Shown here: positions 45,946-63,590 of the stretch, piece after piece
Position numbering within the stretch: the stretch's first letter is position 1
How the letters are laid out: the number at the start of each line of letters is the position of its first letter
IMG/VR virus record: IMGVR_UViG_3300020470_003365
Location: 3,622 to 67,621 of that record
Reading direction: 5' to 3' (one strand)
DNA length: 64,000 nucleotides
DNA from: a virus
Notes under the pieces: model-generated
Told to the model about the DNA's origin: nothing
Seen by the model: only the letters and a program-made list of their open reading frames with translations
Database searches by the model: none
Translations under genes and position numbers: made by a program

Positions 45946-46288
45946 ACACGTTCCCAAAGGATGGGGATATGAGAAGTGGATAGTCAATACTGATGAGTAT
46001 TGTGGTAAGCTGCTGTTCTTTAATAAAGGTAAGAGATGTTCATGGCACTATCATAAATTAAAAGATGAGACATTCTATCTACAGTCAGGTAGTATTCTTT
46101 TATTTTATGGTGAGACAGATTCTTTAGAAGATGCCAATACTATTGTATTAGAACCAGGCGATAAGTTTCATATCCATAGAGGATTGCGTCATCAAATGAT
46201 TGCACAAGATGACTCTGAATTATTTGAGTTTTCTACGCAACACTTTGATGAAGATTCTCATAGAGTTATAACTGGAGATACTCTTTAA
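45920..46288 (+). CDS. Cupin sugar isomerase (D-lyxose / mannose-6-phosphate isomerase-like)
   Basis: VPKGWGYE.WI.N...YCGK.L, SWHYH..KDETFY..SG, H.M.A, EFST.H...DS.R. Confidence 0.8.
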   Translation: MSSSSTNIKHVPKGWGYEKWIVNTDEYCGKLLFFNKGKRCSWHYHKLKDETFYLQSGSILLFYGETDSLEDANTIVLEPGDKFHIHRGLRHQMIAQDDSELFEFSTQHFDEDSHRVITGDTL

Positions 46289-47048
46289 TAGTAGTAAATT
46301 TATAATCACCCCATTCCTTTTTAGCACAAGTGTAGGTTTGATACTTACCTTTTAAGTGTTCTGGGAATGGGATATATTTTATGATGCCATTATATTTTTC
46401 TGCTACCAATTCTCCTACTTCTTGGAAACTGGTAGGATTACTTGTACCTAAATCATAGATACCAGAAGGTTTATCATTATTCAATACAATATCTACAATA
46501 TCATCTACGCATATAAAGTCTCTGAGGAATTTATCAGACCCTTCAAATAGTTTGAGTGCTCCTGTGTCTTTAACTTGCTTAGTGAATTTAGATACAGGAC
46601 TTGCTTGGTCTTCCTTATGCTCTTCTCCTTCTCCATAGACATTAAAGTATCTGAATCCTTGTACTAATTTAAATCTATCAATATTATCCTGAACCCAATA
46701 GTCTGAGATGACTTTGGATATTGCATAGTAATTAAGTGGATTGATTATATCAGAGGTATTGCCATAGACAGATGCAGATGATGCATATTTAATAGGAATT
46801 TGATACCTTATAGCTTGTTCGCATAACCATTCAGTGAACTCAACATTAAAGTGATTGATTGCTTTTAGATTGGTGCATGTGGTATCAGAGATTGCACCTT
46901 GATGAATTATTAGTTCTACTTTATGCCATTCATTAAAGGTACGAAAATGCCAACTGTTATTTTTTTCAACTTTAATAACTTCTTTATCCTTTAATTTTTC
47001 AAGAAATTTCTTTCCAATAAACCCTTCGTGACCTGTAATTATTATCAT
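46266..47048 (-). CDS. hldD: ADP-L-glycero-D-manno-heptose 6-epimerase-like NAD-dependent epimerase
   Basis: IIITG..GFIG, HQGAISDTT, YASSASVYG, PLNYYAISK, FRYFNVYG..E.HK..QAS, RDFI.VDD, IPFP..L.GKYQ.YT.A. Confidence 0.88.
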   Translation of the reverse strand: MIIITGHEGFIGKKFLEKLKDKEVIKVEKNNSWHFRTFNEWHKVELIIHQGAISDTTCTNLKAINHFNVEFTEWLCEQAIRYQIPIKYASSASVYGNTSDIINPLNYYAISKVISDYWVQDNIDRFKLVQGFRYFNVYGEGEEHKEDQASPVSKFTKQVKDTGALKLFEGSDKFLRDFICVDDIVDIVLNNDKPSGIYDLGTSNPTSFQEVGELVAEKYNGIIKYIPFPEHLKGKYQTYTCAKKEWGDYKFTTIKEYLQL

Positions 47049-62020: not shown

Positions 62021-62443
62021 ATGAAAATTGCACTTGCAGCGTTATTAGCACTTACTCCTGTTTCAGCAGTTGCGAGTCCTGTTTATAATGATTCTCAACC
62101 AGGATATTCTAATCAAAGAAGTTGTTTTAAGACAGAATATAGAGAAGAATATATTCCAGGAACAGAGGATAATCCTGGATATGTAAAGTCATGGAAGGAT
62201 ACTGTTGAAGTTCCTTGTGAAGATTCTAATGTTGGATGGAGAAGACATCCAGATAGGCCATACTATCGTAGGCATGTAACTGTCTATGAGGATACCAATG
62301 ATTGTTCTGATGGTAAGATTGCTGGTGGATTATTAGGTGGTGGCATTGGTGCTGCTGTTTCAAGAGGTGATGGTCGCTGGTGGGCAATACCATTAGGTGC
62401 AGTTGTTGGTAGTCACATTGGATGTGATCTTGCTGGCGGTTGA
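62021..62443 (+). CDS. Secreted/membrane glycine-zipper protein
   Basis: Signal peptide MKIALAALLALTPVSAVA; REEYIPGT...PGYV; C-terminal GGLLGGGIGAA.SRGDGRWWAIPLGAV.G glycine zipper. Confidence 0.75.
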   Translation: MKIALAALLALTPVSAVASPVYNDSQPGYSNQRSCFKTEYREEYIPGTEDNPGYVKSWKDTVEVPCEDSNVGWRRHPDRPYYRRHVTVYEDTNDCSDGKIAGGLLGGGIGAAVSRGDGRWWAIPLGAVVGSHIGCDLAGG

Positions 62444-62477
62444 TACAAAAGGGGGACGCATAAAGTGTCCTTAAGAT

Positions 62478-62655
62478 GTGAGGGATATACGGTTCTACTG
62501 CCCGAAAATGATCAATGGGTTAGGTGAGAGTCCTAACTATCTCCGAAAGGATAAGGGAAATCATTGAATCAAGTAGGGGTTCAGGTGTAAGCGATTCCCA
62601 GTAGGTAAATTTGGGCTGCATGGGTGAAACCCAGATCATGGCCCCGTTCCCTCAC
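62478..62655 (+). ncRNA. Structured RNA 1, probably manA-motif-like
   Basis: Closing stem GTGAGGGA (62478-62485)/TCCCTCAC (62648-62655); TTCTACT/AGTAGGG; TCAATG/CATTGA; GTTAGG/CCTAAC; TCC-GAAA-GGA; GGG-TGAAA-CCC. The manA assignment is from memory of cyanophage RNA motifs and is unverified. Confidence 0.7.
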
Positions 62656-62657
62656 TG

Positions 62658-62708
62658 CTGCAACCCCCTTTGGTAGTTTCAGGGTTGGAGGCGATAGGAA
62701 ACTACACA
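62658..62708 (+). ncRNA. Structured RNA 2, compact H-type pseudoknot
   Basis: CAACCC (62661-62666)/GGGTTG (62682-62687) crossed with GTAGTTTC (62673-62680)/GAAACTAC (62698-62705). Confidence 0.6.
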
Positions 62709-62813
62709 GTGGGATGACTTAGTACCTATCCAACCTTGTAAGGTAGCATTGAAATAGAATGTGGTAATTCCTTACATAATGAAGATAGGTGAAGCACCTC
62801 TTGAGCATCCCAC
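62709..62813 (+). ncRNA. Structured RNA 3, long multi-stem hairpin
   Basis: Nested GTGGGATG/CATCCCAC, ACCTATC/GATAGGT, TGTAAGG/CCTTACA, CATT/AATG. Confidence 0.62.
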
Positions 62814-62823
62814 ACCCTTTATT

Positions 62824-62941
62824 CTAGGCAAGGGTCTATGGTTGTCTCAATTCAGTTGAGAAATTACGCCCTGTAAGTCCTTTACGAGGAGATGGATGTG
62901 CCTCGTGGGTCGCCCCCACTAAAAGAACTAACATCCCCTAG
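62824..62941 (+). ncRNA. Structured RNA 4, multi-branch with alternative pairing
   Basis: CTAGG/CCTAG closing; AGGGT/GCCCT; TCTCAA/TTGAGA; GGATGT/ACATCC; GTGGG/CCCAC; ACGAGG (62884-62889)/CCTCGT (62901-62906). Confidence 0.58.
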
Positions 62942-62961
62942 GCTATTTTTATATTATTCTT

Positions 62962-63270
62962 ATGAATTTTGTGCAATTCCTTGAATCTAAAGGATTTGAA
63001 AGATCTACAGACGATAACCAAATTTATAGTTATCCATCTGAATCTGAGTGGAATAAGCAACAAGCTAATTCCACATCTGATGATCCTGATAGACAATTAG
63101 AAGCGAAAGCATGGGTTGAAAAATATCCTAAAATGTATTATTGGGATAATAATGATTATGATGATATAACTCCTGAATTACAAGTTTATTATCAATGTAT
63201 AAATGATGATGGAGAATTAGATTGCGACAGTTATGATTTTATCAAGATTCCTTCTTTATTATTATGTTAG
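62962..63270 (+). CDS. Acidic hypothetical protein
   Basis: ORF track; first gene after the RNA cluster. Confidence 0.7.
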   Translation: MNFVQFLESKGFERSTDDNQIYSYPSESEWNKQQANSTSDDPDRQLEAKAWVEKYPKMYYWDNNDYDDITPELQVYYQCINDDGELDCDSYDFIKIPSLLLC

Positions 63271-63434
63271 TTGATCTATCAAAAGAAGAATTAAAGGCAT
63301 TAGCTGAGGTGTCTTTACATTCCAGTAATTTAGAAATGTCTGAAGAGGCAATCGAATTCTGGACTAATTTATATCTTAAACTCAGAAACATTTCAAACGC
63401 ATGTACTTGTAAGGAGGATTTAAATGACAAGTGA
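63264..63434 (+). CDS. Small hypothetical protein (56 aa)
   Basis: Manual translation MLVDLSKEELKALAEVSLHSSNLEMSEEAIEFWTNLYLKLRNISNACTCKEDLNDK*. Confidence 0.6.
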   Translation: MLVDLSKEELKALAEVSLHSSNLEMSEEAIEFWTNLYLKLRNISNACTCKEDLNDK

Positions 63435-63549
63435 ACAACACTTCATCAATAAAACTGATGAGATGCTTGAAAAGTTCATTGAAGAATGTGAACAAGAAGC
63501 AGCAAAATTAGAGGTCACAGTTGACTATTATCTTGCTGAATTTATTTGA
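63424..63549 (+). CDS. Small acidic protein (41 aa)
   Basis: Manual translation MTSEQHFINKTDEMLEKFIEECEQEAAKLEVTVDYYLAEFI*; AAGGAGG RBS. Confidence 0.75.
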   Translation: MTSEQHFINKTDEMLEKFIEECEQEAAKLEVTVDYYLAEFI

Positions 63550-63590
63550 CAAATTATACCCTAGCAGTTAGACTGTTAGGGTATTTTCTT
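63546..63590 (+). terminator. Terminator hairpin overlapping a sigma70-like promoter
   Basis: ATACCCTAGCAG-ttaga-CTGTTAGGGTAT-tttc; TTGACA (63546-63551)-17 bp-TAGACT. Confidence 0.65.

Follow-up and report, generated by a model that had tools for sequence, protein, structure and literature searches.

The gap between positions 62444 and 62961 of a 64-kb stretch of DNA from a marine cyanophage (the window, itself part of the 67.6-kb IMG/VR virus record IMGVR_UViG_3300020470_003365) holds an array of structured RNA modules, termed A, B, C and D, the last of which consists of two parts (D1 and D2). As judged by sequence comparison, these modules are an uncatalogued set of structured RNAs, which is real and shows an unusual, modular mode of evolution. 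Although much of the mortality among the ocean's main photosynthetic bacteria is due to T4-like cyanophages, to our knowledge the non-coding RNAs of these viruses are almost unexplored.

The gap is the sole stretch of at least 200 nucleotides (nt) in the window that lacks an open reading frame (ORF) of at least 40 amino acids (aa) when both strands are scanned, and its GC content is 0.45, compared with 0.353 for the whole window. It is flanked by a 150-aa ORF ending at 62443, which encodes a glycine zipper (Pfam PF05433), and by a 102-aa ORF with its ATG at 62962. An earlier reading of the window, made from the letters alone (the sequence-only reading), had picked out the gap as the only long, GC-richer non-coding stretch and had described in it four contiguous, self-contained plus-strand folds with GAAA loops. 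Comparative analysis bears this out. The borders derived from homologues (A 62478-62655, B 62655-62705, C 62709-62813, D 62826-62942) coincide almost to the base with those it had proposed, spacers of just 1-11 nt separate the modules, GAAA and UGAA loops are present, and the same modules recur in other orders elsewhere.

The single-sequence fold energy of the gap is only weakly better than that of shuffled sequences (z of -1.89 on the plus strand and -1.50 on the minus strand), so the case for structure rests on homologues. Exact-core scans of IMG/VR found the A core in at least 119 loci, the C core in 40 and the D2 core in at least 119; the counts of homologues, contexts and ORFs given here are among the matches listed. 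Pairing was assessed as the share of paired cells in each homologue alignment, compared with the same alignment after its partners had been slid. This share is 97.6% for A (36 minimal copies), 98.0% for B (24), 94.4% for C (22), 99.6% for D1 (26) and 95.5% for D2 (33), while slid controls reach 26-61% overall (A 35-56%, B 26-54%, C 28-43%, D1 40-61%). The covariation among marine-virus homologues for which the sequence-only reading had suggested a test is found in every module, where pairing is kept by compensatory changes: both sides have changed in 18/30 pairs of A, 9/17 of B, 9/17 of C and 5/10 of D1, and in 4/5 pairs of the D2 hairpin. In the alignment of A there are 61 G-U cells (for example 12 at columns 8/119 and 29 at columns 30/40). 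These would become A-C mismatches on the opposite strand, and the gene-sense strand is therefore the one that folds.

Module A is a multi-helix domain in which two arms are enclosed by a closing helix, P1. None of 500 shuffles matches its covariation score, and in one copy (locus L056) the sequence of P1 is wholly different with pairing kept. The 19-nt strand joining P3 to P2 has only three variable positions, as determined with an independent anchor. A covariance model of A, used as a sequence-level probe, scores 95 bits at 62477-62657 and has no second match in the window. A host or other cellular origin of A was considered and rejected: its exact 18-nt core has 11 matches in unrelated taxa among 596 Gb of genomes, against ~17 expected by chance, and the cellular matches found in this exact-core scan do not extend (at most 15 bits, compared with 95 for the window). 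The loop of P3 is an insertion site. It measures ~8-10 nt in minimal copies, whereas in other copies 40-200 nt are inserted there, D1 and the tip of C being among the inserts. A relative of the insert present in the window stands alone upstream of D2 in two other loci (L088 and L107), where visual inspection shows compensatory changes in its stems.

Module B is an H-type pseudoknot, and in its pseudoknot helix both sides have changed in 6/8 pairs. The window copy has the stem GGUAGUU(U)C/GGAA(A)CUACC together with pairing of the 5' strand to the loop, and aligns with 23 others, including that of S-B05. Module C is a long hairpin with an invariant 3' bulge and a tip that is exchanged among copies; the same tip is found within the P3 loop of A in other contigs. 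D1 is also nested in both the P3 loop of A and the tip of C, and in many contigs its position is taken by other hairpins. Its 3' tail, UGUAAGUCC (62872-62880), is shared with several other hairpin modules. Two further short sequences recur within the array: AGGUG(U)AAGC lies in unpaired strands of A (62585-62594) and C (62787-62796), and UUCAG is common to A (62580-62584), B (62678-62682) and the loop of D1 (62851-62855).

D2 consists of two invariant segments on either side of a covarying hairpin. Its candidacy as a small peptide (ORF 62892-62984) was rejected, as the variable codons change non-synonymously and in step with their pairing partners. A promoter within D2 (CTAACA-16/18-TATATT) was rejected by eye, the -10 part being unconserved among copies. 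Neither D2 nor the palindrome that follows it was retained as an intrinsic terminator; the scan flags neither, and the U-run has no abutting helix.

Table 1. Features of the array in the gap; coordinates are those of the window.
Feature	Coordinates	Strand	Description
ORF-free gap	62444-62961	+ (array)	Between the glycine-zipper ORF and the 102-aa ORF
Element 5' of A	62451-62477	+	G-run, TAAAGT, short hairpin; precedes A in 27/141 unique contexts
Module A	62478-62655	+	Multi-helix domain; 36 homologues
A P1	62478-62485/62648-62655	+	Closing helix
A P1b	62489-62491/62645-62647	+	Short helix
A P2	62495-62500/62599-62604	+	Stacked on P3
A P3	62501-62503/62576-62579	+	Loop is the insertion site
Insert in A P3 loop	62505-62575	+	Nested; three-way junction, UGAGAGU-loop hairpin and GAAA-loop hairpin
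A joining strand	62580-62598	+	UUCAGGUGUAAGCGAUUCC; 19 nt, nearly invariant
A linker	62605-62612	+	
A P4	62613-62616/62641-62644	+	Second arm; closes hairpin P5 with UGAA loop
Module B	62655-62705	+	H-type pseudoknot; 24 homologues
B pseudoknot helix	62658-62666/62682-62690	+	5' strand with hairpin-loop bases
B stem	62673-62680/62698-62705	+	
Module C	62709-62813	+	Long hairpin; 22 distinct homologues
C P1	62709-62715/62807-62813	+	
C P1a	62716-62722/62801-62806	+	A62717 bulged
C P2	62724-62727/62787-62790	+	
C tip	62728-62786	+	Exchangeable; ~9 to ~70 nt among copies
C 3' bulge	62791-62800	+	GAAGCACCUC; 10 nt, invariant
Module D1	62826-62881	+	26/43 unique homologues aligned
D1 outer stem	62831-62834/62869-62872	+	
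D1 inner hairpin	62845-62850/62856-62861	+	UUCAG loop
D1 tail	62872-62880	+	UGUAAGUCC
Module D2	62885-62936	+	Invariant CGAGGAGAUGGAUGUGCC, hairpin, invariant AGAACUAACAUCC; 33/97 unique copies aligned
D2 closing helix (putative)	62894-62899/62931-62936	+	GGAUGU/ACAUCC; invariant in 33/33 copies
D2 hairpin	62905-62909/62915-62919	+	Covarying
Palindrome and linker	62937-62961	+	CCTAGG (62937-62942), then U-rich linker to ATG at 62962

The order of the modules is not conserved. Pieces of the gap were found by blastn in 14 phage records, and their orders differ: in P-SSM2 and P-SSM5 the order is D, a 150-aa ORF, A and C, compared with A-B-C-D in the window, and in marine virus AG-345-O18 D directly follows A. 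In NC_006883 the block of D, ORF, A and C lies at ~55.9-56.9 kb. When the modules were mapped by blastn, matches were obtained in 229/234 loci, in arrangements such as A.D, A.C, A.B.D, D~A~C and C.A.B.D, as single modules and in others, and modules within one locus never lie on opposite strands. Since their order is shuffled between genomes, the modules are independent of one another, and the array is a set of domains subject to both shuffling and nesting. Copy number is low. The record containing the window, P-SSM2 (252 kb) and P-SSM5 each have a single A core and a single exact D2 core, with up to three mismatches allowed in the search, so these are not many-copy regulatory repeats.

No Rfam 15 family accounts for any of the modules. 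The 4227 covariance models of Rfam 15 give no match at the gathering score anywhere in the 64-kb window, and at E<=10 the interval 62350-63050 yields only snoR64 (16.8 bits) and PyrR205 (15.3 bits), both far under their cut-offs. Thus the window is without a match to the Rfam 15 models of riboswitches, ribozymes, group I and II introns, wcaG (RF01761) and PhotoRC-II (RF01717), and 18 related loci (145 kb in total) likewise give none. The sequence-only reading had suggested that its first fold, here A, might be manA (RF01745). This identity did not hold up: the gathering score of 55.2 bits is not reached in the window, and nothing appears at E<=10 in 62350-63050. The identical library detects manA in related phages with 82.5, 91.2 and 77.2 bits (L246, L289 and L343). 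Neither ARAGORN nor Rfam (RF00005) finds a tRNA or tmRNA in the window. No account of these elements was found in the literature searched; a catalogue of viral RNAs with >10,000 candidates from IMG/VR (PMC10690425) may list some of them, and the available portions of PMC3037559 and PMC6628666 do not mention them.

Module B has a wider distribution than the others and connects the array to tRNA operons. It also matches Synechococcus phages by blastn, and in one of these, S-B05, it opens a 1-kb unannotated stretch in which Rfam places B, tRNA-Arg, manA (82.5 bits) and five further tRNAs. A type of B that is one base shorter was found by scan in at least 120 virus contigs. Among the matches listed, a same-strand tRNA lies downstream of it in 67/72 loci with at least 100 nt of room. 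Across both types the nearest tRNA starts 4-7 nt downstream in 70/74 cases (Arg 61, Pro 10, Ile 2, Lys 1). The longer B, to which the window copy belongs, has a tRNA within 400 nt in just 6/54 loci with room; in the window there is none at 4-7 nt, and C follows after 3 nt. Among the matches listed, no contig of the shorter-B scan contains an A, C or D2 core, and D1 occurs there in just two loci, both with the longer B. A, C and D therefore belong to the P-SSM2-like lineage.

The tRNA-type B is preceded by a sigma-70 promoter scoring at least 10/12 in 50/61 unique upstream contexts, compared with 0.7% of shuffles. The hairpin between promoter and B, typically GUUGA-GAGA-UCAAC, corresponds to the P1 stem of A with a tetraloop as its cap, and A can accordingly be read as this leader hairpin with its apical loop expanded. 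On these grounds P1 and B together read as a leader common to the tRNA operons and the array in the window. Rfam analysis of 20 tRNA-type B loci gave 87 matches: 84 to tRNA-type models, two to manA and one to wcaG. In three loci manA (L246:1630-1840; L289:76-289, minus strand; L343:1714-1924) has tRNAs 0-1 nt away on both sides, and tRNA processing must consequently release manA there as a free RNA. Such a release sits poorly with the cis-regulatory label of this family in Rfam. Three long-arm tRNAs in cyanophage tRNA arrays (L282:3489-3574, L303:4062-4147 and L320:2471-2558) score 47.3-48.1 bits against a tRNA-Sec gathering score of 47, and are probably of the Ser/Leu/Tyr type rather than selenocysteine tRNAs. 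In two other loci (L374 and L297), which also have the promoter, hairpin and B, the place of the tRNA is taken by a hairpin whose loop is T-rich, with a promoter-like TTGACT after it; this arrangement may represent a stand-alone small-RNA gene for B.

Promoters also occur upstream of A. In 45/140 unique upstream contexts a sigma-70-type promoter scores at least 9/12, compared with 1.9% of shuffles. The -10 box mostly ends 7 nt before the first base of P1, which places the predicted start of the RNA at a paired base or one base before it. A different element precedes A in the window and in other contexts (27/141 unique upstream contexts, window included), with TAAAGT, TAAACT or TAAATT ending 11 nt before P1. 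In the window this element would be a weak promoter (TTGATA-15-TAAAGT) or, alternatively, part of the RNA, extending it at the 5' end. Read as a promoter it scores 5/12 at standard spacing, and TTGATA-15-TAAAGT needs a non-standard spacing of 15 nt. The element has a single site in the window, and the idea that it is a general promoter was rejected on that ground. In contexts with neither a promoter nor the G-run/TAAAGT element, A follows another module. A further motif, RAACTG(T/G)CAC(A), recurs ~45-55 nt upstream of A-type promoters and before the -35 box (for example in L136 and L017), sometimes within a hairpin or followed by a terminator-like G/C hairpin and a T-run.

At its 3' end the array is joined to the next gene through D2, which is the module most clearly tied to the following ORF. 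An ORF of at least 35 aa starts within 80 nt in 110/123 copies of D2. These ORFs fall into 17 unrelated clusters, mostly of small proteins of unknown function. In most clusters the ATG lies 21-29 nt past ACAUCC; in one cluster of eight, encoding a 397-aa protein with a KxDG motif, it lies 7 nt past. Directly after ACATCC nearly all listed copies of D2 have one of six palindromes (GCTAGC, CACGTG, CCATGG, CCTAGG, CTATAG or TCTAGA) and then a U-rich tract, and two copies have near-palindromes of 7 nt instead. The palindrome is self-complementary in 97% of cells, all three of its positions covary (33 copies), and its type varies independently of the downstream gene. As a hairpin without a loop is impossible, the options left are intermolecular pairing, such as RNA dimerization, and a site in duplex DNA. 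A scan of the plus strand from 62444 to 63555 found no terminator-like site, and thus none between the array and the next ORF; a strong hairpin lies downstream at 63556-63584.

Metatranscriptome contigs from four runs in four studies cover A, C and D, and RNA-library contigs bridge alternative module junctions, such as B to D2 via a CA-rich linker. These contigs are compatible with transcription and are taken to say nothing beyond that. The RNA libraries cover the modules more deeply than the ORFs on either side and leave 62959-63202 uncovered. This difference was not used as support, because the modules are common to many more genotypes in the community than the ORFs are and because the data are contigs.

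Elsewhere in the window the plus strand has only two other gaps between ORFs, 591-1432 and 46266-47048. Both are filled by minus-strand genes that are apparently ordinary: two of these are small ORFs, and another encodes a 260-aa protein resembling, on visual inspection, a sugar epimerase or dehydratase.

The reading favored here is that of a sense-strand, untranslated array of autonomous RNA domains, the head of which (P1/A and B) is homologous to the leader of a cyanophage stable-RNA operon; we would put the chances of this composite at about even. The transcription start, the processing and every functional role in it are those that we infer. The domains would be drawn from a repertoire specific to marine T4-like cyanophages, would be transcribed by host RNA polymerase together with the downstream small genes, and would work as RNA rather than as DNA sites or peptides. 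The leader, P1/A and B, would give the transcript a base-paired 5' end and act on its fate (stability, elongation or processing) and not on translation; a paired 5' end at the predicted start, a pseudoknot and a long untranslated RNA would fit such a leader. C and D1, which keep their fold wherever they are inserted, look like exchangeable cargo working as RNA. They would either persist in the precursor or be cut out as stable RNAs, like the tRNAs and manA of the sister operons, and the release of manA by tRNA processing in those operons makes excision of modules plausible by analogy. D2 would form the junction between the array and the first ORF. The sequence-only reading had proposed a polycistronic operon of small RNAs, cut into separate molecules, rather than a 5' UTR switch. 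Its first half gains indirect support from the position of B at the head of tRNA/manA operons in related cyanophages, the members of which have to be separated by cleavage. A complete lack of any 5' UTR role is disfavored by the absence of a terminator-like site before the next ORF and by the usual spacing of D2 from start codons across 17 gene clusters. A more far-reaching version is put forward only tentatively, as it seems rather doubtful: P1/A and B would be a new promoter-proximal device that alters the fate of any RNA made behind it by host RNA polymerase, either acting as put and EAR do or shielding the 5' end, and A, C, D1 and the inserts would be plug-in domains that have partners or ligands of their own and are delivered as stable RNAs, with the palindrome perhaps serving dimerization between RNAs.

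Several observations weigh against the favored reading. No tRNA was found in some 220 loci initially retrieved by their A, C or D cores, and with none in the window either, excision guided by tRNAs cannot be taken for granted in this array. In the window A has only a weak promoter before it, and transcription may instead enter the array from the upstream gene. The RNA-library data consist of assembled contigs and may include DNA; one of these contigs continues upstream past an A-type promoter. The homologues are closely related and most unpaired segments are near-invariant, and because some of these segments served as search anchors, conservation there is partly by construction. The usual short distance between D2 and the start codon fits a purely cis role for at least this module.

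A rival account takes the array as a purely cis-acting 5' untranslated region, comprising one or more riboswitch-like or protein-binding sensors (A being the best candidate) that act on the downstream ORF only, with nothing released. The array abuts the ORF without a terminator between them, D2 (or B, C or A in other contigs) is followed by a U-rich linker and AUG, and the junction-type fold of A with its long, near-invariant joining strand is aptamer-like. Where B is the last module, a T-run follows in ~10/37 contexts, counted by eye. However, 17 unrelated clusters of downstream genes, mostly for unknown small proteins, are unlike a riboswitch regulon, no Rfam riboswitch matches at E<=10, and B stands directly before tRNAs, where control of translation is impossible and its role cannot be translational. 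We consider this account rather unlikely. One in which the blocks are mainly recombination seams at the DNA level, used to swap gene cassettes between co-infecting phages with RNA folding secondary, appears quite unlikely, although it is not exclusive of the favored reading and the two are compatible. Identical blocks do flank different genes, D2 preceding 17 gene clusters, and contigs from RNA and DNA libraries show many alternative junctions exactly at module borders; the 6-bp palindrome, whose type changes independently of the gene, likewise lies exactly at the border of D2 and the gene. Compensatory changes and G-U pairs nevertheless show selection on pairing of the sense single strand, the modules are never inverted, and there is one copy per genome, unlike the dense PeSL repeats of T4-type phages.

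Self-cleaving ribozymes are known to occur among the RNAs of phages and metagenomes, and one or more of the modules might be new ribozymes that cut the array apart. Compact folding, numerous unpaired bases that never vary and very short spacers between the modules would suit this, but no Rfam ribozyme family matches at E<=10 and RNA-library contigs cross the module borders, so that this seems very unlikely. That the folds are due to chance, or are decaying gene remnants without function, is hardly credible: the weak single-sequence energy would suit it, yet pairing is maintained, with compensatory changes, across hundreds of copies, and the covariation counts already contradict it.

If the more far-reaching version is true, the array would represent a modular RNA toolkit without a described counterpart in phages. 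In any case, several strongly covarying RNA structures absent from Rfam are added by the modules, which also reveal an unusual evolutionary mode, in which RNA domains are shuffled and nested in the manner of protein domains. New here are the B pseudoknot, the link of B with tRNA/manA operons and their promoter, and the reading of A as a loop expansion, as well as the single copy of A and D2 in complete genomes, the distance from D2 to the start codon, and the covarying palindrome. One leader element links the orphan RNAs manA and wcaG, phage tRNA operons and the new modules, which bears on how cyanophages make and use stable RNAs and on the role of manA-type RNAs. P-SSM2 or P-SSM5 on Prochlorococcus NATL1A or NATL2A offers a concrete, testable entry point.

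Several known systems resemble parts of the array. The operator of T4 gene 32 consists of a 5' pseudoknot and then an unstructured A/U-rich tract leading to the AUG, and B as the last module similarly presents a pseudoknot, a U-rich tract and a start codon; unlike that operator, B is followed by genes other than gene 32 and also precedes tRNAs. HK022 put, the Bacillus EAR antiterminators and the ompA 5'-terminal stabilizer hairpin are promoter-proximal, cis-acting leader RNAs. Like these, though without homology to them, P1/A and B form a structured RNA right after a strong promoter at the head of a long, partly untranslated transcript, with a predicted start 0-1 nt before the first paired base.

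PeSL cassettes of T4-type phages are, in the available portions of their descriptions, short motifs with a promoter and a terminator that occur many times per genome, with a proposed role in cassette swapping by recombination (PMC4122927, PMC4503421). To judge from the same portions, they resemble the modules in being conserved, intergenic, co-oriented with genes and located in variable regions at the borders of ORF swaps, often with a sigma-70-type promoter. The modules differ in that they are covarying folds of 50-180 nt, with one A and one D2 per genome. Membership among the PeSL was rejected on copy number (one A and one exact D2 core per genome in three genomes); promoters were found in 45/140 A contexts and 50/61 tRNA-type B contexts, and the plus strand of the array has no terminator-like site.

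The orphan structured RNAs manA (RF01745) and wcaG (RF01761) are described from T4-like cyanophages in the available part of Weinberg et al. 2010 (PMC2864571). As portrayed there, they are likewise structured RNAs of cyanomyoviruses and marine metagenomes, and in the present data manA, and once wcaG, lies in or beside a B-headed tRNA operon. The modules match neither of them in sequence or structure, undergo shuffling and nesting, and, except for B, are limited to P-SSM2-like viruses. Species 1 and 2 of T4 (rnaC/rnaD) are small structured RNAs of unknown function that are co-transcribed with tRNAs and released by tRNA-processing enzymes. While the window itself has no tRNA, the layout of these stable RNAs in T4, likened here by description, resembles that of B, manA and the tRNAs of sister cyanophages.

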